Shown: positions 2,504-31,135 of the stretch, one piece after another
Position numbering within the stretch: position 1 is the stretch's first letter
Layout of the letters: each line of letters opens with the position of its first letter
IMG/VR virus record: IMGVR_UViG_3300025944_000008
Direction: 5' to 3' (one strand)
Source: a virus
Lineage: Duplodnaviria > Heunggongvirae > Uroviricota > Caudoviricetes
Length of the DNA: 32,192 nucleotides
Position numbers and translations under genes: made by a program
The notes under the pieces: generated by a model
The model's database searches: none
What the model saw: only the letters and a program-made list of their open reading frames with translations
Told to the model about the DNA's origin: nothing

Positions 2504-3622
2504 TTAGAACTGCGAGACGTTCGGGAACTTCAGACCGGAGTCCACCTTGTTGTTGACCGCACCGAGCTGGTCCTCGTCGACCGGCAGCAGGGCCGCGAAG
2601 CCCGTGTCGGTGGAGGTCGGGGTCACCGACCCGCCGTACAGCTCGAGCTTGGCCATCGACGCGATGTTGATGACCGCCACGGCGACGTCCATCCAGGACT
2701 GCCAGGTGATCATGTTCGCGATCTTGTCGATGTAGAACTTCGTGTTGTTGAGCACGTAGTTCTTGCCGAGGAACTCCGGCGCCGTGAAGCAGTACACGTT
2801 ACCGACGCGGAGGATGTCGGTCTTCACCGTGCGGATCAGCTTGCGACCCAGCAGGGTGTTGTACTTGTAGCCGTCGACCGCGGTCTCCGACTGCATCTTG
2901 TCGCCGAAGTCCTGCAGCGTCCACGACAGGATGTCGTCGTAGTCGGGCTCCGTCATCAGGAGCCGCTCCGCACGCAGGCGGTTGCCGTCGATCAGCTTGA
3001 ACAGGTTCACCAGGTCCGGGCGGAGGATCGGGTGGATGATGAAGTCGTTCGCACCCGCCGCGATGGCGCCCTGGCCCTTCACGACGCGGATCTGCTTCGT
3101 CGTGCCCGCCACCACACTGGTGACGTTCATCGGCTGCACGCCGCCGTTGCCGTCGGTCTGCATCGCCTGGATGCCGGCCTCGACGAACAGCAGCCACGTC
3201 CGATCCTTGACCTCCTGGAGGTCCTTCACCGAGTTGTCCTCGATGATCTTGGTGATCGGCATCTCGTAGGCGAGGAGCTCCTGCTCGGTCTTCTCGAACT
3301 TCTCCGAGGAGATCGTGAAGAAGGGGACCTCGGCACGAGGCGCGCGGATGAAGCGCGCGGTCGGCTGGCCGCGGAAGGTGATCGACAGCGCGCGAGACTG
3401 CGGCTCGATGTCGACGATCTTCACCAGGGTGTCGTGGTTGACCGAGCGCTGGCAGTCGGTGCGAGTCACCGGCTCCGGCGGCTGGATCTTGTCCACGAAG
3501 CACACTTCACGGAGACGGTCACGGATGTAGACCGACCCGACTTCGGCGATCTTCTCCTTGCCCTCCGACGAGTTCAGCTTACCGCTGAACATCTCATTCA
3601 GAACCTGCGCTGGAACGCTCAT
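2504..3622 (-). CDS. Major capsid protein (probable HK97 fold), 372 aa
   Basis: Strongest C/G-ending codon bias in the window, strong SD, followed by a terminator. Order protease - scaffold-like genes - decoration - this gene, and typical size. The fold is inferred from context. Confidence 0.8.
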   Translation of the reverse strand: MSVPAQVLNEMFSGKLNSSEGKEKIAEVGSVYIRDRLREVCFVDKIQPPEPVTRTDCQRSVNHDTLVKIVDIEPQSRALSITFRGQPTARFIRAPRAEVPFFTISSEKFEKTEQELLAYEMPITKIIEDNSVKDLQEVKDRTWLLFVEAGIQAMQTDGNGGVQPMNVTSVVAGTTKQIRVVKGQGAIAAGANDFIIHPILRPDLVNLFKLIDGNRLRAERLLMTEPDYDDILSWTLQDFGDKMQSETAVDGYKYNTLLGRKLIRTVKTDILRVGNVYCFTAPEFLGKNYVLNNTKFYIDKIANMITWQSWMDVAVAVINIASMAKLELYGGSVTPTSTDTGFAALLPVDEDQLGAVNNKVDSGLKFPNVSQF

Positions 3623-7679: not shown

Positions 7680-7717
7680 CGACAAAAGCGTGTCGTCTCC
7701 GAGATGGACTCCATCTC
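7680..7717. promoter_or_regulatory. Two small intergenic hairpins between the protease and scaffold-like genes
   Basis: CGACA-N6-TGTCG (7680-7695) and GAGATGG-ACT-CCATCTC (7701-7717). Function unknown. Confidence 0.35.
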
Positions 7718-10122
7718 TAGTACAGCGCCTCTGCGAGTGCGCCCGTCTGGGCGAGGGACACCCGAACGCCTTGATCGGCGATATGGATGGCCCGGTCCGT
7801 GTGGTGCGCCCCGGTCAGGTATGCGAGCGAGTCGGGGCTGAACACGCTCGAGCTGGCCGTCTTGTCGACCCCACCGGCGAAGGCCTGCACCATGCTGCTA
7901 CCGAATGACTCGGGAGCGAGCTGGGGGTCGGAGACGAGGAACTTCTGGATGGCGGTGGCCTTCTTCACGATGCTGCGCCGGTAGCCGTTGTAGGCGGCTG
8001 ACAGCTTCTTCATGAGGGGATCGGCGGAGGCGGTCTTCTCGACGCTCTTCCGCGGATCGGCACGGCGTGCTTCAAGACGCTCCATTCGACGAGCAAGAGG
8101 AGTGGCGGCTACTGACCGCTCACCCACCATGCCCAGAGCCTGAAGGAGGTCTTTGAGAGCACGATCGATGCGATCGGGATTCACCTGCAGGGACTCGTCG
8201 ACGTCCGAAGAAGGCCCGAAGACCTCCCCCTTCCTGTCGAGTTCATCCGCCAGCGGCTTCTCTCCGATTCGCACCAGCATCACCCTCTGAAACTCATGGG
8301 GCTTAAGAACGATGCCCATCATAGCGGGGGTTGAGAGGGCTTCGGTAAGATCCATTTTGCCCATCTCGTCCAGCGCCTTGTTTGGGATCGAGCTCTCCCC
8401 TTTCTCCAGTCTTGGCAATGTCTCTTTCGAAAAAGGACCTGCCGGTATTGTTTTTATGATCTCACTCAGCTTCCTATGGGAAGCGGATTTTTCAGAATTA
8501 CGCGTACCTGGAAAGACGGCGTGCGCGACTTTCTCAGCCGTACCGCCGCAATCATCTCCAAGTCCGTGGCATCCGCACGTCGCTGACGCGATCTTCACTG
8601 CCTCGGCATCGCGGGTCTTGCGTGCCTTTCGAGCACTGACAAGGTGGGTCTTCTTGAACTCACCCATTGTCGTCCTCGACACCTGCCCAAGACGCCTTTC
8701 AGGCATATGGTCGAGATAGCTCTTCTTTGCCGCCGCCTCATCGCGATAGCCGATCATGACCTTTCGCTCATCGAACGAGCCGTCGTCCTTGAGCTGATTG
8801 ATCATGAAGACGAACTCTGAATCGCGGCTCGGCCCCACATAGACATCGAGCTGCTCGCCATCGGCATCTACGGTCGCTGGGATGTAGCCGTAATCGGCCT
8901 TCATCAGCTTCTGGTAGGTCACCTTTGAAGGATCGGCCTTTGAGTAGTACTTACGCGTCTGACCCTTCAACCACTCCAGCATGATCGGGATGCCTTGGAC
9001 GTGGATGAACTTCTGAATTGGGTCATTGGCCGTCTTGACTGAAGCTGTCTTCTCACGAGCAGCGTCGAGGTTGACGAGCGCGTCATACGACTCATTTGCC
9101 TCGAGCTGAGCCGGAGGATAGAGCCGCGCCTCGAATGCCGGCTTGGCAGCTTTCGTCTCTTGAATGATCTGAGTACGAGACTTGTTGCCGATGAAGTCGT
9201 TGAAGGTCGGGTCGTACATCCCGTCCTGGTGATTGCCGAGCCAGGTAGGATGCTCCTCACGAAGCGGGGCCGTAGGGTCTTGCTCACCGGCGAACTTCGA
9301 GAACTGCTCACCAACATCGACGCTGAGTCGAGGAATGGTGCAGTACTCACCCATGCAGACCTGATTGCCCTTTGACGCAAGCTTGGCCATGACCTTGGCC
9401 GTCTTGTCGGCTCCGATGAAGACGAAGGAGATGTCGAAGAAGCGAGGGCGAGGGTTGTAGACGAACACCTTCCTGCCATCTGGCAGGATGACATTCATCA
9501 TGCTCTTCGCGTGGTGGCAGTAGTCCTTCGGAGTCTTCGACCGGTGCTGACAGATCGAGCAGACGTCGTAGGGCACCTTGCAGCCCATTGAGACGTCCGG
9601 GAACTCTCCCCGCTCGATCTTCTCGATCACATCCTGAGCGTCGAAACGCTTGCAGAGCTCGCGGTCAAGATAGACCACCAGCTCCACGCGATGCATCTTT
9701 GGGTTCCACGCGGCGAGCTCGACCGAGCCGAATGCCCGCGACGAGTCCTTGTTGACGTGGTGCTTGTACGGATGCGCCCCCATGAAGGTGGGGAAGCCGT
9801 ACTCCCAGCTCTTGCCGATCTCCTTCATCCGCGTGGCGGGAAGCTTCTCCCAGTCCTTCGGAGAGTGGATCAGCTCCTTCTCAGGGAAGTGGTCGCCATT
9901 GATGTTGGAGCCCCAGATCTCGCCGGCGCCCATGGCGTTCACCAGGACGTAGATGCCGTGCTTGCTGGGGCGAACAGTCCTGACGAAGTCGGCGATCTGA
10001 GGATGCAGGTTCGCTCGCGATGAGGCAGAGGCAGTCTTTACCAAGCCGTCATCGAGCAAGGGCTGGCAGAAGATCTGCCCCTCATCGTTCTTGCCGAAGA
10101 ACTGAACCTGCTTGACGAGCAT
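7717..10122 (-). CDS. Prohead (capsid maturation) protease with an inserted inorganic pyrophosphatase-like domain, 801 aa
   Basis: The N-terminal ~250 aa show HK97/herpes-type maturation protease patterns: HPYKHHVN (His), DVSMGC (Ser, nt 9589-9591), FFDISFVFIGADKTA. Nt ~8641-9006 encode IPIMLEW...DYGYIPATVDADGEQLDVYVGP...FDERKVMIG, a family-I PPase-like (InPase) pattern. Confidence 0.75.
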   Translation of the reverse strand: MLVKQVQFFGKNDEGQIFCQPLLDDGLVKTASASSRANLHPQIADFVRTVRPSKHGIYVLVNAMGAGEIWGSNINGDHFPEKELIHSPKDWEKLPATRMKEIGKSWEYGFPTFMGAHPYKHHVNKDSSRAFGSVELAAWNPKMHRVELVVYLDRELCKRFDAQDVIEKIERGEFPDVSMGCKVPYDVCSICQHRSKTPKDYCHHAKSMMNVILPDGRKVFVYNPRPRFFDISFVFIGADKTAKVMAKLASKGNQVCMGEYCTIPRLSVDVGEQFSKFAGEQDPTAPLREEHPTWLGNHQDGMYDPTFNDFIGNKSRTQIIQETKAAKPAFEARLYPPAQLEANESYDALVNLDAAREKTASVKTANDPIQKFIHVQGIPIMLEWLKGQTRKYYSKADPSKVTYQKLMKADYGYIPATVDADGEQLDVYVGPSRDSEFVFMINQLKDDGSFDERKVMIGYRDEAAAKKSYLDHMPERRLGQVSRTTMGEFKKTHLVSARKARKTRDAEAVKIASATCGCHGLGDDCGGTAEKVAHAVFPGTRNSEKSASHRKLSEIIKTIPAGPFSKETLPRLEKGESSIPNKALDEMGKMDLTEALSTPAMMGIVLKPHEFQRVMLVRIGEKPLADELDRKGEVFGPSSDVDESLQVNPDRIDRALKDLLQALGMVGERSVAATPLARRMERLEARRADPRKSVEKTASADPLMKKLSAAYNGYRRSIVKKATAIQKFLVSDPQLAPESFGSSMVQAFAGGVDKTASSSVFSPDSLAYLTGAHHTDRAIHIADQGVRVSLAQTGALAEALY

Positions 10123-18731: not shown

Positions 18732-20189
18732 CTATTGTGCTGCAGGCTGCTGCTGTTGTTCAAGTAGGGCCCGGAATTGTTGGATCAAGTTTTCCTTTTC
18801 CTGGGCCCTGGCGGCAAGGTACTCGTCGACCGATCCACCTGGCTTCTTGAGGCGCAGCTTCTCGAGAACGCCGGTTGGACGGCGAGTCGCCAAGAACCGC
18901 TGGACCTTCACATTCCGCTCTTCTGGGGGAAGCATCGCGTGGCTCTTGTAACGGATGCCACGACCCTCAACCTGCTTCAACTTCTCATCATTCCAGTGAG
19001 GCTCTAGCATCTGGATGAGTCGAGTGCCCTGCAGATCGAGACCTTCTCCACCGGCCGAAGAGAGCAAGAGGGCGCGAATTTTGTTCTCGTTGTACTGCCT
19101 GACGAGCTCGTCCCTCTTCGACTTCGGCATCTCACCGGTGAACTCGCCGTAGGGGATGCCAGCTTCTTGAAGCCTCTGGGCGTAGGGATTGATGCCTGCG
19201 CCGAGGTAGTTGGAGTAGACGACAGCCTTTGCCCTCTCGTTCGCGGCAAGCTCTTGCTGCAACCGAGAGAAGGCTTCGTCCAGCTTGGGCTCATAGACCT
19301 TCTTCACGTCCTCCTGAAAGGGAGCAGTGGAGTTGGCGATTTGCCGACTGGCCCCCAAGAAGGCGTTGAGCTGCTGGGATTCCCGCTTGCTGGGAGGCAG
19401 ACGAGAGCGGATCTTGGCCGACACCCAAGGTGGCGCCTTCTTCAGGATGGTGTCGTAGACCTCGAGCTGCTTCGGGTCCATCGGCACCTTGACGTCCTCA
19501 CGATTGACCTCGGGGAAGTCTTCCTTCGCAGACGGGTGATAGTCGACCCACTTGTCGAAGATGCCTTGAAGCTCTTCCTGGCGCTTGGGGTTCAGCTCTT
19601 CAACGACACCCGGCTTGAGGCCGCGGAGTCGATTGATGATGCCAGGGCTAATCTTCTTCTGACGAATGAACCTCTGATTGAACCGCTCCGGGTCCGTCGG
19701 AAGCAACGGCGCTCCAGAGGCGAGGTCTACGAGTGGCGCAATGTCAGACGGGCGGTTGTAGAATGGACTGCCGGTCAGAAGCAGGCGCTTCTCGGCCTCG
19801 TTCTTCGCCAGCGTCTTGTAGGTCTGCGTCTGAGGCTCACGAGCACGGTGAGCCTCGTCGACGATCATCAGGGGCTGCGTCGGAGCCTGACGCTTCCTCG
19901 TGATGTTCTGCATCGACTGGACATGAGCCTTCTGCTTGGCTCCGCCCAACCACTTCTTCTGCTCCTTGCGGTAATTCGCCTGGAGTGCTGCCGGAACGAT
20001 GACGTCCGACGGCATCTTGAGAGCCTTCTGAGCCTCGATCGCAGTTCTCGTCTTTCCAGAACCGAGACCGTGCGCCACCACCAAGCCCGGCTGGTCAGGC
20101 TGCTGGATACGATCGACAACACGCTGCTGATGGGGCTGTAGCCCTGCCACGCCCGCGATCTTCCCGAGGTTGGTAGCGAGACGACTCAT
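18732..20189 (-). CDS. SNF2-like superfamily 2 helicase/ATPase, 485 aa
   Basis: Q motif LQPHQ, Walker A HGLGSGKT, DEAH box, LLTGSP, SSAGGEGLDL, EPHWN, motif VI QVEGRGIRYKSH. Confidence 0.92.
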   Translation of the reverse strand: MSRLATNLGKIAGVAGLQPHQQRVVDRIQQPDQPGLVVAHGLGSGKTRTAIEAQKALKMPSDVIVPAALQANYRKEQKKWLGGAKQKAHVQSMQNITRKRQAPTQPLMIVDEAHRAREPQTQTYKTLAKNEAEKRLLLTGSPFYNRPSDIAPLVDLASGAPLLPTDPERFNQRFIRQKKISPGIINRLRGLKPGVVEELNPKRQEELQGIFDKWVDYHPSAKEDFPEVNREDVKVPMDPKQLEVYDTILKKAPPWVSAKIRSRLPPSKRESQQLNAFLGASRQIANSTAPFQEDVKKVYEPKLDEAFSRLQQELAANERAKAVVYSNYLGAGINPYAQRLQEAGIPYGEFTGEMPKSKRDELVRQYNENKIRALLLSSAGGEGLDLQGTRLIQMLEPHWNDEKLKQVEGRGIRYKSHAMLPPEERNVKVQRFLATRRPTGVLEKLRLKKPGGSVDEYLAARAQEKENLIQQFRALLEQQQQPAAQ

Positions 20190-20662
20190 CGATTGAGGAT
20201 GTGGAGCATCTCGTCCACAAAGGCCACCATGGCCGTCTTCGGGAACTTGGGATGCTTCTTGAACGCGTTGTAGGCGTCGATGAACTCTCGATACTTCTTG
20301 GCATCACCGCCGCGATCTGGATGGTGCTTGAGCGAGAACTCGCGGACGAGCTTCTTCACGTCCTTCTGCGACTTTACGCCTTTGAAGGCCGACGGGACTG
20401 CTTTGGGGAGTGCTGAGGCCGGCACTGTATGAACGGGAGTTGTGTACCCGACGAGACCGCCAGCGATTCCGCCAGCGAGCCCCATCTTCCACGCGTTTTT
20501 CTTTCTCTGCTCGGCATCATAGTGGTGCGTTACATCTCGCCACTGGTCATGCCAGGACTTCATCGTCAATCCACGGACGGCTCCGCCAGCACCGCCAGCA
20601 ACTGCCCCAACGCCGGTGAGGAAGGCACGTGGGTTAGTCTTGATGAAGTCACCGAGTCCCAT
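20186..20662 (-). CDS. Membrane-anchored-type J-domain (DnaJ-like) protein, 158 aa
   Basis: KKLVREFSLKHHPDRGGDAKKYREFIDAY (HPD at nt 20315-20323), preceded by two Gly-rich hydrophobic helices; ATG 20662 with SD AAGGAG. Confidence 0.85.
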   Translation of the reverse strand: MGLGDFIKTNPRAFLTGVGAVAGGAGGAVRGLTMKSWHDQWRDVTHHYDAEQRKKNAWKMGLAGGIAGGLVGYTTPVHTVPASALPKAVPSAFKGVKSQKDVKKLVREFSLKHHPDRGGDAKKYREFIDAYNAFKKHPKFPKTAMVAFVDEMLHILNR

Positions 20663-21482
20663 CGCCACTCCTTGGGGTGACCACCACTCCCCACTTCACC
20701 ATCAGGTTGTGTGGCGGGGCCATGGTCTTGTCCCACCACCGCTGCTCACACTCAGCGCGTGTAATAACACGCTGGTTGCCATCGGTGTTGGGGTCCATCA
20801 GATGGACCACATTGTCGTCGATCTGAGTGATGACGACGTAGTGCCCCTTGCCAGGGTTGTTGAAGCTTTGGAAGTCGGCAATGATCGGGATGCCCTGATC
20901 GGTGATTGCCTTCGCCTCATCGAGGGACGAGAAGCACTTGTCGTACGCGTCGAAGCCGAGCTTCTGAGCTCCACGGGTGATCTCGTCCACCTCCGCACCG
21001 CCGCGATCGCGCACGCCGATGGCGTACATGATCTCGTGCTCGGCAAAGCGATCGGCTCCCCAGTGCTCGAGCACGGCCTTCAGACACGCCGCTGAGCATG
21101 AGTATTGTGTCTTCTGTTGGTAGGGCTCGACCTGTGCGAGCTTCAAGAACTCGCTGGTTTGATCGATGAGGGGGATGATCGTCTTCGCCGGCTTAGAGCT
21201 AAGAAGGCGCTTGGCTCCCTCGATGACCGGCCCCGGTGGCTTCTTTGGGGTCGGCAGCTTGTTGGCGAGGAAGTTGGTGATCGTTCCGACGATCGGTGGA
21301 GCGGGCTGACCAAGCATCGGGCTGAAGGACTGGTGTCCTTGGGATGCCTGGGCCGCGGCGTTGCCGAGCTGTGCGTACTGCCCCTTCAACCACGACTTTG
21401 CGACACCAAGCGGACTCGCGAGCTTCAGTCGCTGGATCTGCTGGAACTCGTCGGAGAAGGCGGTGAAGAGAGGTGTCGTCAC
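20649..21482 (-). CDS. Peptidase C39-like cysteine protease with an N-terminal extension, 277 aa
   Basis: YQQKTQYSCSAACLKAVL (Cys), GHYVVI (His), HLMDPN (Asp). Confidence 0.88.
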   Translation of the reverse strand: MTTPLFTAFSDEFQQIQRLKLASPLGVAKSWLKGQYAQLGNAAAQASQGHQSFSPMLGQPAPPIVGTITNFLANKLPTPKKPPGPVIEGAKRLLSSKPAKTIIPLIDQTSEFLKLAQVEPYQQKTQYSCSAACLKAVLEHWGADRFAEHEIMYAIGVRDRGGAEVDEITRGAQKLGFDAYDKCFSSLDEAKAITDQGIPIIADFQSFNNPGKGHYVVITQIDDNVVHLMDPNTDGNQRVITRAECEQRWWDKTMAPPHNLMVKWGVVVTPRSGDGTR

Positions 21483-21607: not shown

Positions 21608-23626
21608 TTAGACGAGCTCCTTCTGCTGGAGCGAGCGAAGGCCGCCGATCACCTCTTCCATGTTCTTCATGGCACGCTCGGCGGCACCAGTCGGGACCTG
21701 GTTGAGGCCGAGACGTGAGGCGATCAGCATCTCGGCGAGCTTGGTCGATGTCGTGTCGAGGTCGGGGAGGTAGCTGGCGAAGATGGAGATGTTCTCCGGG
21801 TTGATGAAGTTCATGGCGAGAATCTTGTCGGCCGTCTCGGTGTCCTCGAGCGCAGCCGCCTCCTTCACCAAGTCCCGGCGCCAGAAGCTGTAATCGAATT
21901 GCTCGAGCAGCGCCGCAGCCTTCTTCTCTGCATTCGCGTGGATGTCGCCGAGCGGCACGATGGGGTTCAGGCCTGCAAGCTTCACCAGCTTATTGGGGCG
22001 ACGCTCCGCTTCCTTGATAACCTCCTGCGCTTCGTCCTGGGTAAGGCCCATGGCGCAGAGCAGGAACGTTGCCTCCGCCGTCTTCAAGAACCAGCGGTTG
22101 TCTCGGGCAACCTTCATGACCGGCATGCCCTCGAGAGACGTCTCTCCTGGGCCCGTCGACTTGACGGCCACTTCGTTCGGCAAGCTCTTGGCATCGGCCG
22201 CCGAGTCCGGGGTGTCACCCTTGGCCAGGTGAACCGGCTCTCCGCTCAGGGGCACCCACTGCATGTCGTCCGGGATGGCGAACATATCGCCCTCTCCCAT
22301 CGGCTCGAATGCAGAGATACCAGGAGTGGGGACGAGGGTCATCTGCGCCCCGAAGACGTCGCTGACCATGTACTGCAGCATCCCGTCCGGGCCCTGCGAG
22401 GTCGATTCGATGGTGAGAGGAAGAGTCGAGAATGGCTTGGCACCACCCTGTGGGTGGTAGACGAAAATGCCGTCGCCCTGCGGCTGCTGTCCTTGAGCCG
22501 CCTCGAGAGCCATGCCGCCAGGTCCCTCCTGACGCACACCGATGATCTCGTCCTGAGCACCATAGGCGCCGTGGCCATCAGTGAAGACGAAGAACTCAAG
22601 TGGCTGCATCTGGAAGTCGACCACAGGCAGCACGGTGCCCATCAGAGTCTCGCCACTGTCCGCGTTCTTCACAGCGTAATCACCGAACTCAGTGATGAGC
22701 GCCCCATCCGGCTCGTCCAGGCCCTGCTTCTGAGCACGCTGGGTGGTGACCGTCATGGTCTGACCTGGCTGCATTTTCGACATGTCCTGCCCAGCCATGG
22801 CGGCAGCCTGGTCCGGCGAGGCCTGCATCTCCTGCGGAGCGAAGGCGCCGGCGTTGGCCCACTTCACCTTGAAGTTGCCCGAGGCGAGCTTGGTGATCTG
22901 CACGACCGTCGGCTTGATGCTGTGGATCAGCGCCGAAGCCGTCTTCTCGACGCTCATGTGCTGAACCATCGCCATCCGGTTCGAGATCTTCCGAACCGAC
23001 GCGTTCTTCAGGAAGAGAAGACGGGTCTCCTCGTCGGAGGCGATCTTCTCGAGGAAGGCTTCGTACTGTTGATCAGAGATGGTCGAGGCAATCACCTCGC
23101 ACAGGGGCTTCTTCGCTGACGCCTGCTTGCCGAAGCCGCCAACACCAACGCCAGTCGCCACGGCATTGCCGTAGCCGTAATTGGTACGCATCGGCGGATA
23201 GAGCTGGTCGACCATGCCCTGATCGGTGGGCTTGCGGGTTGACGTCTCGACGGCGGCCGTGCGGAAGAGCTTCTCCCGCAGGCGGCGTTCGTTGAGAGGA
23301 AGAGCCTCGTTGCCATCGAGCATCACGTCCAGTGGCTGCATGAGCCGGTCCTTGACGATGATGGGGATCTTGACCGAGTTCTCCGGCTGATCAGGCAGAG
23401 GAGAATCCGTCTGATTGGTGACTTCGGCAGCTCCGAAGGCGTAGCCCCGCTGGGCATCCACGCGATCGAGCATCACGTTGACCGAGTAGTCCGCCAGGTA
23501 GGGGAGCTGCTTGTAGATCTCCGATGCGATCTCCCGCTGCCAGTTCTCGGTGTTGTCACCGAGCTTCACCGGCATGGCCACCTTCTCGAAGGTCGGCTTG
23601 AAGTCCTGATCGAGGAAGAGATTCAT
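21608..23626 (-). CDS. Large head-associated structural protein, 672 aa
   Basis: Long ORF coupled to the spike gene; about ten K-x-A motifs (EKVA, KQAS, EKIAS, EKTAS, KLAS...). No enzyme motif recognised. Confidence 0.8.
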   Translation of the reverse strand: MNLFLDQDFKPTFEKVAMPVKLGDNTENWQREIASEIYKQLPYLADYSVNVMLDRVDAQRGYAFGAAEVTNQTDSPLPDQPENSVKIPIIVKDRLMQPLDVMLDGNEALPLNERRLREKLFRTAAVETSTRKPTDQGMVDQLYPPMRTNYGYGNAVATGVGVGGFGKQASAKKPLCEVIASTISDQQYEAFLEKIASDEETRLLFLKNASVRKISNRMAMVQHMSVEKTASALIHSIKPTVVQITKLASGNFKVKWANAGAFAPQEMQASPDQAAAMAGQDMSKMQPGQTMTVTTQRAQKQGLDEPDGALITEFGDYAVKNADSGETLMGTVLPVVDFQMQPLEFFVFTDGHGAYGAQDEIIGVRQEGPGGMALEAAQGQQPQGDGIFVYHPQGGAKPFSTLPLTIESTSQGPDGMLQYMVSDVFGAQMTLVPTPGISAFEPMGEGDMFAIPDDMQWVPLSGEPVHLAKGDTPDSAADAKSLPNEVAVKSTGPGETSLEGMPVMKVARDNRWFLKTAEATFLLCAMGLTQDEAQEVIKEAERRPNKLVKLAGLNPIVPLGDIHANAEKKAAALLEQFDYSFWRRDLVKEAAALEDTETADKILAMNFINPENISIFASYLPDLDTTSTKLAEMLIASRLGLNQVPTGAAERAMKNMEEVIGGLRSLQQKELV

Positions 23627-23627
23627 G

Positions 23628-24776
23628 TTAGACCTTCACCTTCGGGTTCTGGTGGTTTTTGGGAATCATCGAGAGGATGCCAGGGTTCGCAGCGACGAGA
23701 GTGCCGAAGGGCGTCGTCACTGGAGTTCCAAGCTGAGCAGCGACTGCAGCGATGAACTGGATGAAGTCAGGAGAGTTGCGCAAGACGGGCCATTGCGCCA
23801 AGTCGATATCGATCCCCGCTGTGCCCTTGAGCACCAGCTTCTGCATGGCCTGGATCGTCATCGCGTCGTCCGTCTTGATTCCCATCGCCTTTGTGCTGTG
23901 GAGATCCATCGAGTCTTGGCTATCGAGCGACATCGCCTTGTTCGACGAGACCGAGACTTTGCCCTGCTTCGCTTGGAGCGTCAGGTCACCTGAGTTGAGC
24001 ACCAAGGAGTAGTTCTTTTCCATGGTCCAGTTGACGTTGCCGTCCTTGTCGAAGGTGAGCCCTATCTTGACGTCTCCTCCACCTTTATCGCGGGTTTGCA
24101 GCGTCAGGATAGTCTTGTCACCGTCGCCATGGGAACCGATTTTGAGGAGGGCGACCGTCTTGTCATTGGAGTCGTCCGCGAACTCTTTGGCGGCGATTTG
24201 GTACAGACACTTCTGGTGCCCGTCGGAATCTTCATCCTTCCTCTGCACCTGCCATGTGAGGTCACCAGCCGGGGTGTGGAGCTCGTAGTTCTCGGCGAAG
24301 TCCTGCATCACGTTTCGAATGGGTAGGAAGATGCGCTGGCAGATGGGAGTAGAGCCGATCTGAACGATCCCTCCTCGACGGAGAGTGACGAAGTTCAGGT
24401 CTCTTGTCTTGAGCTCGATGTCTCCAGGATTGAGAAGAGAGCGCCCACCACGATAGCTGCCGCCCTCATCCACCACAGACCAGCCAAGAACGAAGCTCTC
24501 TCGTCCGTCTTCTGAAGGCTCACAGACCCAGCAAACCGACCCGACTTCCGGCATCCAGTTGATGCCCTCTCCCTGGTTCTGATTCACGTAGGGAGAGATG
24601 AAGGGGATGTCGAACTTCACCGTATAGGGCGCAGCCTCCATTCGGGTGTCCACCGTGTAGTCCCGAATGTTGACGTTGACGACACGGCCCCGATAAACGG
24701 AAACGTCGCGAAGATCCGTCGTCGCCGTGGAGGACGAGCGCTTCTTGGGGAAGGCGTCTACAGCGCGTCTGCTCAT
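23628..24776 (-). CDS. Putative baseplate central spike/hub protein (gp5/gpV-like OB fold plus beta-helix), 382 aa
   Basis: N-terminal GRVVNVN...IPFISPY...GINWMPEVGSVCWV resembles the gpV/gp5 OB-fold pattern; the C-terminal region has short beta-strand repeats (SLDSQDSMDLHSTKAMGIKTDDAMTIQA). Confidence 0.65.
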   Translation of the reverse strand: MSRRAVDAFPKKRSSSTATTDLRDVSVYRGRVVNVNIRDYTVDTRMEAAPYTVKFDIPFISPYVNQNQGEGINWMPEVGSVCWVCEPSEDGRESFVLGWSVVDEGGSYRGGRSLLNPGDIELKTRDLNFVTLRRGGIVQIGSTPICQRIFLPIRNVMQDFAENYELHTPAGDLTWQVQRKDEDSDGHQKCLYQIAAKEFADDSNDKTVALLKIGSHGDGDKTILTLQTRDKGGGDVKIGLTFDKDGNVNWTMEKNYSLVLNSGDLTLQAKQGKVSVSSNKAMSLDSQDSMDLHSTKAMGIKTDDAMTIQAMQKLVLKGTAGIDIDLAQWPVLRNSPDFIQFIAAVAAQLGTPVTTPFGTLVAANPGILSMIPKNHQNPKVKV

Positions 24777-24778
24777 GA

Positions 24779-27700
24779 TTAGTAGTGGTGCGGATTCTCT
24801 TTGGTGCCCTTGCCGAACTCCGCACCGAAGACATAGGCGGGAACGGGGTTGGGCCCGTGGATGTTGCTCTTCCAGCCTCGAGACGCACCCTCGAGAATGG
24901 TCTGCCGCAAACGCTCGAAGTTGAGACGCGCCATCCAGTCTTCGTGCTGGTCGAGGGCGACCTGCTCCGCCGAGCGAATAACTGGCTTTGCGATGATCGG
25001 CTTCTCATCGGGCTTCAGGCTGCGGTTGTGCTCATCCACCACAGTGCGAAGGACGAGGTCTCCGTGCAGGTGTGCCGAATCGCCCGGATCCTCGACGCGA
25101 GCGAGGTTGGTCAGAGAGCGCACTACTGTCTCGATGTTGCGGCGCTTGACGTGCTCGTCCTTGTACACATCGTTGTGTAGGCTGTTCGTGACGTAGTTCT
25201 GCACATTGTGGATGTCGGTCAGCGGCAAGAGCTCGCGGGGATTGATGGGGCCGTCCGACAGCGCGTGGCCCGGGAAGACTTTGTCGCCCACAGCGACGGT
25301 GACCTTGTTGACGGCCGGGACGTAGTGCCGTTCCCCGCCGATGTGGATGTAGTGACCGTTCGTCGCCTTGTCGTGCTCGATCCGAGACACGGTCCCTTCC
25401 ATGGTGGATAGGGTAGCAGAGTGCGACAGGATCTTGGGGACATTGAGAAGCTGGTTCAGTCGAGTGAACTTGTCGACCGCACCGGCGCCTCGAGACGCCG
25501 CGACGCCACCGGTGTGGAACGAGTCCATGGCGAGCTGCGTCGCTGGCTCACCAAGAGCGTGTCCGGCGATCACGCCGATGTTGGTGCCGACTTCGTGGAA
25601 GTGTCCGTTCTCACTGAGTCCGTAGCACTTGGCGCACAGGCCCTGCCCGTGGGCGCACTTCAGAGGAGACCGCACGATGATCTTGTCGACGCCGTGCTTC
25701 TGCAGAGTTGCCGTCACCTCTGGAGTGATGATCGTGCCAGGAGCGAGCGTGTGCTTACCCACTTTCGCTTCCTTGGCCAGAACTCGATCCTGGATCTCCA
25801 CGTCGGCCACATTCATCGTGATGCCGTTCTTGGTACCGCAATCGTTCGAGACGATCAGCGTCGGCATCATGACGTTAGCAACGTCTTTGGTGAGAGCTCC
25901 AGGCTCAGAGGTACCTTCGACCTTCTGCAGGGTACCCATGCGGGCGCCGTGGAGAGACGTCCAGTAGTCACCGACGTCGAGACCCTCCGCATAGCTCTTC
26001 TTGACCGGAGTGGGGATGGTGCCGCCAGCGCCGTCCTTCATGAGCATCGGAGCCATGGTGATCTGGCGGAACTGCGGCGTCGAGCCGCGAGCACCGGAGT
26101 ACACCATCGTGTAGATCTTGTTGTCCGTCTTCTCGAAGTGCGGCAGGAGCTCCTTCTCGAGCTCATCGGTCGCCATCGAGTAGATCTTCACCAGCTTGGC
26201 GTCCTTCTCTTCCTTCGAGAGCTTGCTGGACCTGATCTTTCCCGCCTCGACATCGTAGGGGTGGAGGATGTGATCACGCAGCCCCTTCTGAACATCAAGG
26301 TCCTTCAGACCGAAGGAGAACCCCGCTTCGTAGGAGTAGTTGTTACCCAAGTCCTTCAGCTTGTCGACGGTGAGGGCGAAGCTCTTCGGGTCCTGGCGGG
26401 CCAGGTTACCCAGGAGCTGCTTCACGTTCTTCTTCTTGAGCGTGAACTTCGAGTCGTGCAGAAGTTCCTCGTTGGCCTTGAAGCCGTCTGGGAAGTAGCT
26501 ATTGATTGTCATGCGGCCGAGCGTCGTCTTCTTGCCACCGATGGTGAAGACGTCGTTCATGCCAAGAGCACCTCTGTCCTTCGCCTTCTGTGCTTCGAGG
26601 AAGTTGGGAAATGTCTTACCAGTCTCCTTGCCCCACTTCGTCAGAAGGTGAAGACCGAGCAGTGACTCCTGCGTCGGCTGGTACATGATGTCGCCGCTGG
26701 TCGAGCTGAAGAGGTTGTTCGACGGGAACATCTTGTGGGACTCCTTGACTGCCTCGTCCGTGAGCGGGACGAAGACGGACATGGTGTCGCCGTCGAAGTC
26801 AGCGTTGTAGCCAGCGGTGACCAGCGGGTGGATCTGGATGGCCTTGCCCTCGACCATCTTCGGCTTGAAGGCCATGATCGAGAACTTGTGCAGAGCCGGG
26901 TCTCGCTTGAGGAGGACCGGGCGCTTGTCCATCGCCTTCTCGAGCGCCTTCCAGGCGATGTCCCTATTCTCCTTCACCGCCTTCAGCGCATTGACCGGGT
27001 TGAGGCCGACCTGACCCAGCTCTCGCACGACGAAAGGCTTGTAGAGCTCCATCGCCGCTTCCTTCGGTAGGCCCACGTAGTCGAGGTGCATGGCCGGCTC
27101 CGGGATGATGGTGGAGCGCATGGAGAGCTCCTGCCGGCGCTTCATGAGCCGCTTCTGGAAGTAGCCTTGCTTCGGCTGATCGCCAGCAACGACGTCGAGG
27201 ATGCCCTTCATCGGGCGGTTCGACTCGTAGACCGGACGCCCACCGAGGCCAGCGTAGGCCCTCATGGCGTCGTAGAGCTGCTCGCGGACGTTCCTCTCCG
27301 AGGCACCGCCGAGCTCCTTGACCGGGTTCTTCAGACGATCGTTGAGGAGACCGATGGCGTGGTAGTACTGGTTGATGTCGTCGTAGCGCAGTGAACCATC
27401 CGGCATCGGAACAATGGGCCGGAACGCCGGCGGCAGCACCGGCAGGTAGTTCATCATGTACGCTTCGTGCGGCTTCATGTTGAGCTTGTCGAGAGCGATG
27501 AGGTAGCGCGCCTTCTTGTTGGCCTTGTTGAGCGCGTCCTTCTTCAGCTTCGGGAGCTCAGCGAGCGTCTTCTTCAGCTCGGCCTTGACGTCGATCTTCT
27601 TGAGAAGATTGTTGATTGCGATACCACCTGTCTCGCCGTTGGGCAGGGCCTTCTTGCCCTTCGCAACCGCTTCGAAGTCTTCATACCGAAGACCGGATAG

Positions 27701-30700
27701 GATGACGGCCGGGCCGAGCTGCGACTTGCTCGAGCCGACGAACACCGGATTGGGAACCGGCTCGGCCATCTTGATGTGAGACCAGAAGAGTCCCTTGCCC
27801 TTGTCATCCGGCAGGCCGCCGGTGATCTTCGGGTCGAAGAGGCCCTTCTCCAGCTCCTTGGCATCTTTGCCACGGAGCATGCGACCAGCGTCTTTGATCT
27901 CGCCGTGCGAGAGAGCGAGCACGCCCTTGTCAGTCAACGGCATGAGCTGGAGCTCGTTGCCTTGCTTCTGGATGTTGACGCCGAGGCCGGTGAGCAGGTT
28001 CTCGAACTTCTTGTACGCGAACGTCGGGCGAGGAGCCGGCAGCGGCTGGCCCGTGCGGACGCGATCCCAGAAGTCGGTGTGATTCATGTCGTCGAGATTG
28101 TCCCCGAGGTGCTGGTCGGCCTTGTAGGTGGCCATCTCGCGAAGGTTGTGGCGCGCTCCGTGAGCGAGCAGAGCGTAGAACTCGAGCTGCCCCAGGCCCT
28201 GGCCGGGGTGCTCCGCACCTGTGCCCTTGGGAGCGTGGTCGACGGTGTAGGAACCACCGCCCTGTCGACCTCCGCTTCGGACGGCGAGCTTCTTCTCGAC
28301 CTGGTGCTTGAGCTTGAAGATGTACTGATTGCCCGTCAGTACGTCTCCGAGCTTCTTGCCGTTGGTCGGATCGAAGAGCGTTTCTTGATCGCTGATGCCA
28401 TTCTTCGCCAAGTCTTCTTTCACCTTGCTGGTGTAGTCGACGTGCGGCCCGGCGAAGTTGGTGACGACATAGGGCTTGCCCGTCTTCTCGGCGACCTTCG
28501 AGGCGGCTGTCTCGAGCATCTGACCGAGGTTGATGCGGGTCGGGACGCCGGATGGGTTCATGAGGACCTGGACGTGCTGGCCATCTGCGCCACCGATGCG
28601 AGGCATCTCGTGGTCGGGCAGGATGCGGGTGATGATGGCCTTGTTGCCGTGTCGGCCGACGATCTTGTCACCGACCTCGGCGGACTCGAGCGTCTTGACG
28701 TGAACGACGGCTCCCTTGTTGTTCGGGAGCTTGACGACCTTCACCACCTCACCCGGGTGGTCGGAATCCCAGACCACGCTTCGGTCTTGGAGATTGAAGG
28801 CCTTCTTCGACAGACGACTCATCAACCGACCAGTCTCGCCGGCGTAGTCCTTCTTGCCCACTGCTGCAACGAGGATGTCTCCCGGCTCGACCCGCTGACC
28901 GACTCGAATCAGACCGTCCGTCCCGATCTTGGACATCTGGTCCTTCGTCAGCTTCTTTGACATCGTGCTGGCGAAGGCGATGAACCTCGACTTCGAGATC
29001 TCGTCCCTCTCGGGATCTGTCTCGAGCGTCCGACGGTGCAAGTGCTCCGACGTCAGCTTCTTTGCTGCTGAGTCGGAGATGACGATGCCGTCCTCGAAGT
29101 TGTACCCCTTGTACGGTAAATACGCGACGCGAAGGTTCGTTCCAAGGGACAGAGAGCCCTGCCGTGTGAAGTTGGTGTCGGCGAGGGTCTGCCCCTTCTT
29201 CACCGAATCGCCGACCTTCACAAGCGGCGTCGAGTGGATGAAGGTCTTCGAGTCGTTGAGCGGGAAGTGGTTGTAGATCTGCTCCTCGTGTCGCTTGCCG
29301 GCCGCGTCCTGAATGACGATAGCCTCAGCGTGGCCGTTCTCCTTGCTGGTCTTGATCTCCACCACCTTGCCGTCGTGATGAGCATTGTGGGACCAGTCGA
29401 GACCGGTGAGCTTCTCCCAGGTCTGAGACCCGCCTGCCAAAACCTGAACGAGAGGCTGCTCGCGATTGTGCAGAGAGACGGCCTGCGTGCCCTGGCGGGA
29501 CGCGGTCATCGTGCGGTTGCCCTGGTTGTTCTGCAGGAACGGGATGAGGTTGGTCGCCTCATCGTAGAGCTGCGAGGGCTGAACAACGAGGTAGCGAGCC
29601 TCGGAGAAAGGCTTCTCCAGCATCTCGTGTGTTATCGGGTCCTTCATCTTCACGAGGTCCGCAATCGGATGCGGGCGCCCGTCCCTGATGACGACCTGAT
29701 CTGGCAGCAGCACGTTCTCTCGGTGTAGCTCGGCCGGCGTGACCTTGGCGAACTGCTTCGCCTTCAGATCATAGACCTGCATGATGGGGTCGTTGCCCCT
29801 CTTCTTGACGCCGATGGGCAAGTGCAGAGTGATACCGGTGCGCTCCGACTCCGGCGTGTGGATCGGATCGAGATAGCCGAAGTGCGAGGGGTTGATGAGC
29901 TTCATGTCGGGCGTAACCGACTGCTCCTTCTTGATACCGCCCTCCTCGGCCATGATCGTCGTCGCTCGATGATTCGAGATCATCTCGAGCGGGTTCACCT
30001 GCTCCGGGTTCTTCGAGAGCATGGAGCTCGTGAAGAACTCCTTGATGGGGCGATTGAAGAGGTCGCCGGAGATGATGTCGCGAACCTTATCCTGCCGGTC
30101 GATGTTGTTGCCGACTTTTCCAGCAAGGGTCCGCTTCATCTTGGACTTGGTGAGCTGCTCGTGCAGGAAGTCGTCCGTTCCGTGCAGTGTCTTGAAGACG
30201 AGTGAGTTGCGATCGTCCTGTGGGATATCGCCCTTGGTCACTCCAAGAATCCGCTGCGAGCCCAGCAGCAAAGCTTCCCCGTTGACGTGGTCGAACGGCT
30301 TGCCGAAGACGAGCTTCGTCATCTCTGGCAACAAACCCGTCTTGTGGAACTCGGCAACAACGGCAGAGGCCTTCTGGTCGTAGGTTAGGCCTTGCAGTTG
30401 CTGCTTCGAGTTCTTGGTGATCTTCGCGTAGAGCTCTTCAATGTCCTTCTCCGGGTGCTTCGGGACATTGGCCTTGTAGATGTCCTCGCCCCACGCCTTC
30501 TTCATATCCTCGTCTTGAACGCCGAGAACCTTGAGAACGGAGTAGAGCGGAGGGTGATAGGTGCCCCACTGGAACTGAAACTTGCGAGACTCTGGATCGA
30601 ACGGGATCTTGATACGAGGCTTACCCGCGAACGGCTTGGCGAGGTTGAACTCGGTCTCCATTTCGCCGTTCTGCTTGATGTGGGCGTAGACGCCCGAACG

Positions 30701-31048
30701 CAGGCGCCAGAGGCTATCCACCTGCCACTCGGATCCGTCGACGATGTAGCTGTAGCGGTTGGTGGGCTTGGGGAGAGTCATGACCTTGATCTTGGTTCGA
30801 TCGAGCTCATGTCCCGTGGCTTTGTCGATCAGGCTCACGTCGGCGAAGACGTTCGCGCCCCAGGTCTTCTTCTGATCCTTCGCTTGCTCCTGAGAGCGGA
30901 TGTCATCTCTCGGTGCGCCACTATCATCGAAGGAGAGATTGTGAAGAACCAACTTCTTCGCTCTTCCTTCGAAGGGGAAGTAGCTCTTCACTGCTGACTC
31001 GACACGCTCTTGGAGGGACTTCCAGGTCTCTGCTGGGGTACCGGCCAC
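24779..31048 (-). CDS. rpoBC: DNA-directed RNA polymerase, fused beta-beta' single polypeptide (~2089 aa)
   Basis: Beta motifs in order: HFGYLDPIHTPES, LIPFLQNNQGNR, GYNFEDGIVIS, GDKIVGRHGNK, NPSGVPTRINLGQ, YIFKLKH, GQGLGQLEFYAL. Beta' motifs in order: GLFDPKITG, LPVLPPAFRP, VLLKRDPALH, YNADFDGD (nt 26786-26806), SGARGS, C...CAKCYG, GEPATQLAMDSFHTGG. No stop between the halves. Start moved to GTG 31048 (SD AAGGAG). Confidence 0.95.
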   Translation of the reverse strand: MAGTPAETWKSLQERVESAVKSYFPFEGRAKKLVLHNLSFDDSGAPRDDIRSQEQAKDQKKTWGANVFADVSLIDKATGHELDRTKIKVMTLPKPTNRYSYIVDGSEWQVDSLWRLRSGVYAHIKQNGEMETEFNLAKPFAGKPRIKIPFDPESRKFQFQWGTYHPPLYSVLKVLGVQDEDMKKAWGEDIYKANVPKHPEKDIEELYAKITKNSKQQLQGLTYDQKASAVVAEFHKTGLLPEMTKLVFGKPFDHVNGEALLLGSQRILGVTKGDIPQDDRNSLVFKTLHGTDDFLHEQLTKSKMKRTLAGKVGNNIDRQDKVRDIISGDLFNRPIKEFFTSSMLSKNPEQVNPLEMISNHRATTIMAEEGGIKKEQSVTPDMKLINPSHFGYLDPIHTPESERTGITLHLPIGVKKRGNDPIMQVYDLKAKQFAKVTPAELHRENVLLPDQVVIRDGRPHPIADLVKMKDPITHEMLEKPFSEARYLVVQPSQLYDEATNLIPFLQNNQGNRTMTASRQGTQAVSLHNREQPLVQVLAGGSQTWEKLTGLDWSHNAHHDGKVVEIKTSKENGHAEAIVIQDAAGKRHEEQIYNHFPLNDSKTFIHSTPLVKVGDSVKKGQTLADTNFTRQGSLSLGTNLRVAYLPYKGYNFEDGIVISDSAAKKLTSEHLHRRTLETDPERDEISKSRFIAFASTMSKKLTKDQMSKIGTDGLIRVGQRVEPGDILVAAVGKKDYAGETGRLMSRLSKKAFNLQDRSVVWDSDHPGEVVKVVKLPNNKGAVVHVKTLESAEVGDKIVGRHGNKAIITRILPDHEMPRIGGADGQHVQVLMNPSGVPTRINLGQMLETAASKVAEKTGKPYVVTNFAGPHVDYTSKVKEDLAKNGISDQETLFDPTNGKKLGDVLTGNQYIFKLKHQVEKKLAVRSGGRQGGGSYTVDHAPKGTGAEHPGQGLGQLEFYALLAHGARHNLREMATYKADQHLGDNLDDMNHTDFWDRVRTGQPLPAPRPTFAYKKFENLLTGLGVNIQKQGNELQLMPLTDKGVLALSHGEIKDAGRMLRGKDAKELEKGLFDPKITGGLPDDKGKGLFWSHIKMAEPVPNPVFVGSSKSQLGPAVILSGLRYEDFEAVAKGKKALPNGETGGIAINNLLKKIDVKAELKKTLAELPKLKKDALNKANKKARYLIALDKLNMKPHEAYMMNYLPVLPPAFRPIVPMPDGSLRYDDINQYYHAIGLLNDRLKNPVKELGGASERNVREQLYDAMRAYAGLGGRPVYESNRPMKGILDVVAGDQPKQGYFQKRLMKRRQELSMRSTIIPEPAMHLDYVGLPKEAAMELYKPFVVRELGQVGLNPVNALKAVKENRDIAWKALEKAMDKRPVLLKRDPALHKFSIMAFKPKMVEGKAIQIHPLVTAGYNADFDGDTMSVFVPLTDEAVKESHKMFPSNNLFSSTSGDIMYQPTQESLLGLHLLTKWGKETGKTFPNFLEAQKAKDRGALGMNDVFTIGGKKTTLGRMTINSYFPDGFKANEELLHDSKFTLKKKNVKQLLGNLARQDPKSFALTVDKLKDLGNNYSYEAGFSFGLKDLDVQKGLRDHILHPYDVEAGKIRSSKLSKEEKDAKLVKIYSMATDELEKELLPHFEKTDNKIYTMVYSGARGSTPQFRQITMAPMLMKDGAGGTIPTPVKKSYAEGLDVGDYWTSLHGARMGTLQKVEGTSEPGALTKDVANVMMPTLIVSNDCGTKNGITMNVADVEIQDRVLAKEAKVGKHTLAPGTIITPEVTATLQKHGVDKIIVRSPLKCAHGQGLCAKCYGLSENGHFHEVGTNIGVIAGHALGEPATQLAMDSFHTGGVAASRGAGAVDKFTRLNQLLNVPKILSHSATLSTMEGTVSRIEHDKATNGHYIHIGGERHYVPAVNKVTVAVGDKVFPGHALSDGPINPRELLPLTDIHNVQNYVTNSLHNDVYKDEHVKRRNIETVVRSLTNLARVEDPGDSAHLHGDLVLRTVVDEHNRSLKPDEKPIIAKPVIRSAEQVALDQHEDWMARLNFERLRQTILEGASRGWKSNIHGPNPVPAYVFGAEFGKGTKENPHHY

Positions 31049-31106
31049 GATAATCTCCTTGCAGCCCTCTGCCTGACGGCAATCTCCGGGCCGACCAAGT
31101 GCCTCC

Positions 31107-31135
31107 AGCGTAGGCAGAAGACGATCCGACGTCAA
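31107..31135 (-). promoter_or_regulatory. Sigma70-like promoter upstream of the RNAP gene
   Basis: TTGACG (31135-31130), 17-nt spacer, TACGCT (31112-31107), with an AT-rich tract upstream. Confidence 0.55.

Follow-up and report, generated by a model that had tools for sequence, protein, structure and literature searches.

We analyzed a 32,192-nucleotide stretch of DNA (referred to here as the window; IMG/VR record IMGVR_UViG_3300025944_000008) that is part of the complete, 210-kb genome, with terminal repeats, of an uncultured soil jumbo phage. At positions 18732 to 21482, the window carries three consecutive minus-strand genes for a C39 cysteine peptidase, a J-domain protein, and an SNF2-family ATPase, with overlapping start and stop codons at the C39/J and J/SNF2 boundaries. 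A preliminary description of this DNA had noticed a Lys-x-Ala (K-x-A) string at a domain edge in each of the three products and had taken these strings for removable tags that bring the enzymes into the phage head. All three strings were found exactly where they had been placed, and Pfam agreed with the enzyme families that had been named (i.e., SNF2-rel_dom plus Helicase_C and Peptidase_C39, with a weak, partial DnaJ match that includes the HPD motif).

The SNF2-family ATPase (485 amino acids [aa]; 18732..20189, minus strand) matched SNF2-rel_dom (1.6e-13; 50.8 bits) and Helicase_C (5e-15; 56.1 bits), both above the cutoffs. It has an intact Walker A motif (GSGKT), a DEAH box, and motif VI; GSGKT, DEAH, and Q-x-x-G-R-x-x-R were invariant in our alignment of the family (A1), as expected of SNF2/SWI2 ATPases. 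Among PDB sequences, it matched Rad54-like proteins, with vaccinia NPH-I as the second-best match. The protein opens with a 12-residue peptide ending in K-I-A (20154..20189, minus strand), a degenerate form of the family tag described below, and the joint itself (K10-I-A12; 20154-20162, minus strand) lies before the P-H-Q motif.

The J-domain protein (160 aa from a GTG codon, the database copy starting from Met3; 20186..20668, minus strand) comprises two glycine-zipper hydrophobic segments followed by a short HPD J domain. Neither of its Pfam matches (DnaJ, 0.0037; glycine zipper, 0.0021) reached the cutoff, and the DnaJ match was partial (positions 13 to 52 of 63; 17.8 bits versus a cutoff of 27.8), with HPD conserved across the family. 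In J domains generally, HPD forms the loop between helices II and III of a four-helix fold. Its joint (K144-T-A146; 20231..20239, minus strand) comes directly after the J domain and is followed by a 14-residue C-terminal tag helix of the A-F-x-D-E-[L/M]-x-x-I type (20189..20230, minus strand).

The C39 protein (277 aa; 20649..21482, minus strand) consists of a helical N-terminal part (residues 1 to 116) and a C39 domain (residues 117 to 270), the latter matching Peptidase_C39 from residue 117-121 onward (2.6e-14; 53.7 bits versus a cutoff of 22). Residues Q123, C129, H214, and D230, corresponding to the oxyanion Gln and the Cys-His-Asp triad of the papain-like C39 fold, were invariant in 113 sequences (alignment A2). 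A tag helix at residues 7 to 22 ends in K20-L-A22 (21417..21464, minus strand) and reads A-F-x-D-E-L-x-x-I-x-x-x-K-x-A in close orthologues, while the joint K114-L-A116 (21135..21143, minus strand) immediately precedes the C39 domain. In an AlphaFold2 model, the C39 domain had a predicted local distance difference test (pLDDT) score of >90, and both K-L-A sites ended helices; the second led into a coil, with the confidently folded domain beginning approximately 5 residues later. The protein is not a typical double-glycine leader peptidase, as such peptidases usually come with an ABC exporter and cut after Gly-Gly, but Pfam detected no exporter domain in it and the conserved joints contain no Gly-Gly. 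We also considered reading the tag as a double-glycine leader, given a similar hydrophobic spacing, and rejected this reading because the register differs and Gly-Gly is missing.

From the window alone, the three sites could be chance occurrences of a loose tripeptide, because K-x-A is not enriched in the three enzymes (observed/expected counts of 2/3.7, 2/2.1, and 3/1.7). We therefore turn to relatives, which were collected by pattern scans (approximately 120 loci from IMG/VR and metagenomes) and protein searches (119 C39 homologues and 91 J-protein hits); a near-identity DNA search of phage records returned no match. Among distinct C39 homologue junctions, 111 of 113 read K-x-A-x-V-x-P-Y-Q-Q, and the upstream context of this string varied; in some proteins it was a domain (DUF5661, GNAT acetyltransferase, C92-type papain-like amidase [PF05708], or an entire SNF2 ATPase), and in others it was a helical region of unrelated sequence or only a few residues. 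Of the 71 distinct junctions in SNF2 orthologues, 50 had K-x-A at a set spacing, the Ala preceding the Pro of P-H-Q by 6 to 8 residues (by exactly 8 in 46 of them), compared with a background of 0.0017 per residue in the helicase body. Approximately 12 further junctions of the 71 had K-x-S/G or a shifted K-x-A, and the pieces in front of the junction ranged from 2 to approximately 800 residues in length. The J family includes 67 relatives with a C-terminal J domain, nearly all of which had F-x-K-x-[A/S/G] approximately 25 to 30 residues past HPD. The expectation, set out in the preliminary description, that the position of the site would be kept while flanking sequences diverge was thus strongly borne out for all three enzymes. 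Because the positions are conserved in relatives (in more than 100 homologues with unrelated flanks), the doubt about chance is removed, and we regard that explanation as refuted, its probability being practically nil. K-x-A is almost certainly a functional joint.

The residues leading up to the joint were also shared. SNF2 orthologues mostly had x-[A/G]-F-x-D-E-L-x-K-[I/L]-A at this place, and the SNF2 and C39 families had a common upstream profile (P9 Phe, P7 Asp/Ser, P6 Glu, P5 Leu, P4 Glu) that continued into the joint (P3 Lys, P2 Ile/Leu/Thr, P1 Ala, P2' Val/Ile/Leu). The SNF2 peptide of the window is a worn-down version of this profile. A peptide of the form [A/G]-F-x-D-E-L-x-K-I-A opens approximately 10 proteins of the genome to which the window belongs. 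For the remaining tagged proteins that this genome encodes, neither Pfam nor PHROG yielded an assignable function. The helicase of Pseudanabaena phage PA-SR01, a relative with 39% identity, was considered and set aside, since its N-terminal extension is a different one and its helicase core is not preceded by K-x-A. The gene for this SNF2 relative (L121:8575-9000) lies inside a head gene module, and its 140-residue N-terminal extension contains two twin-arginine-like R-R-x-F-L-K motifs.

These comparisons change the identity of the tag. What had been described as a K-x-A tag is a helix of approximately 10 residues, and K-x-A is the joint that adjoins it, between tag and cargo. In SNF2, C39, and approximately 10 other proteins of the genome, an N-terminal helix is followed by K-x-A. 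In the J family, the order is reversed; the joint comes first and is followed, two to six residues later, by an A-F-x-D-E-L-x-x-I helix at the very C terminus of the protein, a helix found in 34 of the 38 J relatives that match the K-x-[A/S/G]-plus-helix pattern. K-x-A thus always lies between the predicted helix and the putative cargo, whichever side the cargo occupies. Such a layout is predicted for a removable tag; a peptide that served as a structural element of the individual domains would account for it poorly. K-x-[A/S/G] closed the helix in only 7 of 35 cases when the helix was terminal, and it was kept when more polypeptide followed.

Joints of the same kind separate modules that have been shuffled among relatives. 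SNF2 and C39 are fused in one 895-aa protein, and C39 is fused to the glycine-zipper J protein in three proteins, with K-x-A at every joint; the three enzymes are therefore connected not only through the order of their genes but also through fusion. Where DUF5661, GNAT, or C92-type amidase (PF05708) modules precede C39, K-x-A likewise occurs at every joint. On visual inspection, the segment that joins SNF2 to C39 in the 895-aa fusion resembled ParB; Pfam assigned nothing to it, and we make no claim for it. Many C39 domains (e.g., in P0031, P0048, P0061, P0143, and their relatives) are preceded by a recurrent module of approximately 130 residues, not assigned to any family, that starts with E-K-x-A-G-G-[E/D]-I-L-G-R-L-A and contains P-I-P-G-T-P-R-L. 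A 99%-identical variant of the C39 gene of the window (L040:1985-2944) has a Cys-rich, zinc-ribbon-like insert of 42 residues just before the C39 domain, flanked by K-L-A and a new K-T-A, i.e., a very recent module gain.

The same motif occurs in the head proteins encoded in the window. The major capsid protein contains K24-I-A26 (3545..3553, minus strand), a probable maturation site. Five close orthologues have E-G-K-x-K-phi-A-[E/Q]-phi (phi, hydrophobic) at approximately residue 25, the same extended pattern as at the enzyme joints, and two distant orthologues keep K-E-A at residues 27 to 32. Four proteins of the head module are enriched for K-[TLIVMQ]-A (p, 1e-5 to 6e-9), and in the scaffold-like proteins, K-x-A is repeated many times in low-complexity linkers. 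An 801-aa protein (7717..10122, minus strand) combines a head maturation protease (residues ~1 to 250; PHROG 18299) with an InPase domain (residues 371 to 492; Pfam, 2.8e-30). It has K-T-A or K-I-A at residues 29, 240, 247, 358, 363, 510, 696, and 754, and the bracketing of its pyrophosphatase-like domain that had been pointed out earlier is real (K-T-A at 358 and 363 on one side, K-I-A at 510 on the other). Conservation among its orthologues extends to the sites around residue 30 and to those where the protease domain ends. The assignment to PHROG 18299 (head protease) had E values of 2.5e-7 for the window protein and 4e-15 for an orthologue, and H117, H121, H122, and S178 were invariant in an alignment of only four sequences (A3), in keeping with a prohead protease. 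Searches of the protease domain against Pfam and PDB sequences gave no match. AlphaFold2, run on the four-sequence alignment, gave an unusable model of this domain (mean pLDDT, 48), and a complex prediction of the protease domain with the tagged C39 N terminus, made without controls, had a score of 0.00 that weighs neither way. In two relatives (G003 and G004; loci L127 and L129), the head protease gene is interrupted right after an invariant V-S-M-G by an insert of several hundred residues (approximately 440 aa in G003), which has Cys as its first residue, looks like an intein, and is located at the probable catalytic serine.

K-x-A is probably a proteolytic site, and the phage head protease would be the likely enzyme, a point on which we are somewhat less confident. 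One alternative is that the C39 peptidase encoded by the phage cuts the joints, either prior to packaging or once the proteins have entered the cell, so that the module-built proteins would be C39-matured polyproteins. K-x-A adjoins the C39 domain almost without exception, the catalytic Gln, Cys, His, and Asp are invariant, C39 peptidases normally recognize an amphipathic leader helix and cleave after small residues, and built-in peptidases have been proposed for such processing in the literature on polyvalent proteins (PMC5512222). However, known C39 enzymes cleave after Gly-Gly, which occurs at none of these joints, and C39 was found only in loci whose SNF2 is at least 59% identical to that of the window, whereas the SNF2 K-x-A reaches much further. 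Salmonella phage Arash, the nearest relative in culture (identities of 38% for SNF2 and 28% for the capsid protein), has no C39 gene and yet keeps K-x-A in its capsid protein and in its head proteins, with many K-[TVIQ]-A sites in gp220, gp222, gp223, and gp225. The motif is thus more plausibly used by the head protease than by C39, and we consider cutting by C39 improbable.

A second alternative is that the helix and K-x-A form a docking peptide that is never cut and that tethers the enzymes to a hub (scaffold, portal, polymerase, or a membrane site), with K-x-A in the binding surface. A few C39 genes begin with M-x-K-x-A-Q, two residues ahead of the site, so that the motif is kept with nothing to remove; residues past the site are conserved too (Val at P2'); and 100% coverage was reported for the Arash helicase in virions, although that protein has no tag and the coverage figures look unreliable. 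On the other side, K-x-[A/S/G] is relaxed precisely where the helix stands at the extreme C terminus and is kept whenever polypeptide follows, the motif is multiply repeated in the scaffold-like linkers and brackets inserted modules, and the capsid protein and the protease bear it where prohead proteases usually cut. On balance, an uncut docking peptide seems unlikely.

Our preferred reading is that the SNF2, C39, and J proteins are capsid cargo, loaded by the helix as a label that is then cut off, and we hold this to be rather probable. Each cargo protein would be made with a short amphipathic helix (consensus, [A/G]-F-x-D-E-L-x-K-I) that may dock it into the assembling prohead. The Lys-hydrophobic-Ala joint would then be cut by the head maturation protease domain at the N terminus of the 801-aa protein; this protease would also process itself, the capsid protein, and the scaffold-like proteins at that motif. 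Once released, the enzymes would stay inside the head alongside the fused beta-beta' RNA polymerase and exit with the DNA. As for the individual steps, there is a reasonable case that the tagged enzymes are packaged; the chances that they are also ejected are about even.

Phage Arash provides the virion data that bear on this reading. Its virion spectra include RNA polymerase beta (gp206, 3516), beta' (gp216, 1210), the helicase gp217 (1148), gp218 (1149), the capsid protein (1333), and the portal (877) (PMC10585845). Per residue, the polymerase parts, the helicase, and gp218 had approximately 2 spectra and the portal had 1.5 (calculated from PMC10585845). The polymerase, the helicase, and gp218 were thus among the top signals in spite of a preparation that was probably not clean. 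The earlier proposal that the enzymes are virion proteins is supported to the extent that the polymerase and the SNF2 orthologue are abundant in Arash virions; the role that it gave to the tag does not extend to Arash, where no tag is needed for packaging. Because its SNF2 protein is untagged and it has no C39, Arash itself informs only the cleavage motif and the virion content.

Several observations weigh against loading by a removable tag. Arash gp217 begins directly at the helicase core and the polymerases have no tag, and all of them are found in virions; the tag is thus not the only route into the head and is perhaps no route at all. The Arash preparation lists 116 "virion" proteins (PMC10585845), some of which are likely contaminants, and the supplementary tables consist of gene and protein lists with no peptide-level data on the predicted new termini. 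Several SNF2 orthologues have no K-x-A, and a removable tag makes little sense for the C39 genes that begin at the site. Finally, P1' is Ser in the scaffold-like proteins and Gln, Lys, Glu, or Asp in the enzymes, and because of this difference, the two classes of sites may not share one protease.

The real genes of the window are nearly all on the minus strand and packed end to end. They encode, in order, a 2118-aa RNA polymerase, a 382-aa protein, a 672-aa protein, C39, the J-domain protein, and SNF2, followed by three unknown proteins, endonuclease VII, the large terminase, a K-x-A-rich 354-aa protein, a 209-aa protein, the 801-aa head protease-InPase fusion, scaffold-like proteins, and the major capsid protein. 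The earlier statement that the enzymes are co-operonic with an RNA polymerase was supported, in that they share one tightly packed minus-strand block with the sole RNA polymerase and the head genes. This polymerase is a fused beta-beta' multisubunit enzyme (24779..31135, minus strand), the only RNA polymerase of the complete genome, and its N terminus has no K-x-A tag. It had strong matches to cellular RNA polymerase domains and lies within the structural gene block; the Arash enzyme is encoded by two genes.

Directly after the polymerase gene, in a conserved position, is the gene for the 382-aa protein (23628-24776), which has weak matches to VgrG-type spike repeats (DUF2345) and no K-x-A. 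The 672-aa protein (21608..23626, minus strand) has an N-terminal F-E-K-V-A and nine K-[TLIVMQ]-A sites. We examined it as a portal candidate and ruled this out, since it has no likeness to the Arash portal and is a homologue of the Arash virion protein gp218. In a subclade that lacks the J and SNF2 genes (L122:5990-6010 and L123:3370-3385), the C39 gene starts at, or one base past, the stop codon of a gene of the 672-aa type. Its product begins with M-x-K-x-A-Q, which may reflect translational coupling or an unrecognized fusion product. Beyond the window, the genome encodes a 273-aa sigma factor (G000, 32557-33375; locus L142:382-1200), with Sigma70_r3 above the cutoff and r2 and r4 in order. 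It has an N-terminal hydrophobic stretch and, approximately 28 residues in, K-T-A, and its gene comes directly after those of two small proteins bearing the canonical tag. The Arash sigma factor is reported among the virion proteins.

The preliminary description had regarded the enzymes as the best candidate for an undescribed system. This does not hold, as the arrangement matches the T4 capsid-targeting sequence (CTS), the propeptides of phiKZ and SPN3US, the P1 DarB signal, and the concept of polyvalent proteins. The most likely reading is a cargo system of the T4 "target and cleave" kind in which both the motif and the cargo set are new. As in the T4 type, one short terminal peptide occurs on unrelated proteins and ends in a motif that is also on capsid and scaffold proteins. 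Herpesvirus assemblin cuts [V/L/I]-x-A before Ser at release and maturation sites. The likeness to assemblin lies in Ala at P1, often Ser at P1', and a head protease that would release itself at the end of its own domain; here, in contrast, Lys at P3 is the hallmark, and the fold of the phage protease could not be modeled.

In T4, the CTS is found on IPI-III and Alt, internal proteins from which the prohead protease gp21 cleaves it off (PMC9026906, PMC3012670). It is, like the tag described here, a short N-terminal amphipathic peptide (10 to 25 residues) on unrelated proteins that ends in the cleavage motif, here a putative one, of the head protease, and the T4 cargo consists of enzymes delivered with the DNA, as proposed for the present phage. 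The differences are the motif (K-phi-A versus [L/I]-x-E), the cargo set, and the occurrence of the present tag at C termini or between modules as well. In phiKZ, 201phi2-1, and SPN3US, the protease gp175/gp245 cuts after A-x-E, and ejection proteins and a multisubunit RNA polymerase are packaged (PMC10052503, PMC5694885). These phages resemble the present one in their large size and, as predicted for it, in a virion RNA polymerase, many internal proteins, N-terminal propeptides (20 to 250 residues), and a self-cleaving protease; they differ in the cleavage motif and in having split polymerase subunits rather than one fused beta-beta' polymerase, and most SPN3US head proteins, including the virion RNA polymerase subunits, are reported to be uncleaved. 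P1 DarB is a 250-kDa protein with a methylase and an SNF2-type helicase, and its first 30 residues direct its loading into the head (PMC9024508). The present proteins include no methylase, the signals have no sequence likeness, and DarB requires other Dar proteins for loading.

The polyvalent proteins of phages and conjugative elements (Iyer et al. 2017, PMC5512222) are multidomain proteins assembled by shuffling of modules (SNF2, InPase, GNAT, and peptidase), and both their transfer along with the DNA and their processing are predicted; the text of that report names neither C39 nor DnaJ, and the modules described here are mostly separate genes. In the searchable literature, we found no description of the tag helix, the K-x-A rule, or the cargo set, a search in which PMC5512222 was not searched for the joint motif. 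An SNF2 helicase has been linked to jumbo-phage RNA polymerases, and a RapA-like role was proposed for it (Iyer et al. 2021, PMC7824862). As with RapA/HepA and vaccinia NPH-I (of the virion polymerase complex), an SNF2 ATPase is encoded beside a viral multisubunit polymerase and, in Arash, copackaged with it; the match to NPH-I is limited to the generic C-terminal helicase lobe.

A more speculative idea, to which we give little credence, concerns the glycine-zipper J protein. It could be ejected with the DNA and insert into the host inner membrane at the entry site, where its J domain would recruit host DnaK to pull through and refold the coejected polymerase, SNF2, and C39. Such a device would parallel, in a phage, the mitochondrial import motor with its membrane-anchored J protein and Hsp70, and if the idea is true, the C39-J and SNF2-C39 fusions in relatives would represent one delivery-and-activation unit.

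If the helix and the joint work as we infer, they would constitute a readable rule for telling which proteins are brought into the cell by the uncultured huge phages of a large clade. Exact mature termini follow from this rule, and if it is true, there would be approximately 10 such proteins in the genome to which the window belongs, most of them of unknown function. A short, transplantable loading tag could also be used to pack foreign proteins into phage heads, as has been done with the T4 and P1 signals. For the phage itself, a transcription set (the polymerase, SNF2, and the K-T-A-bearing sigma factor) would be joined with a protease and a chaperone recruiter as effectors of the first minute of infection.

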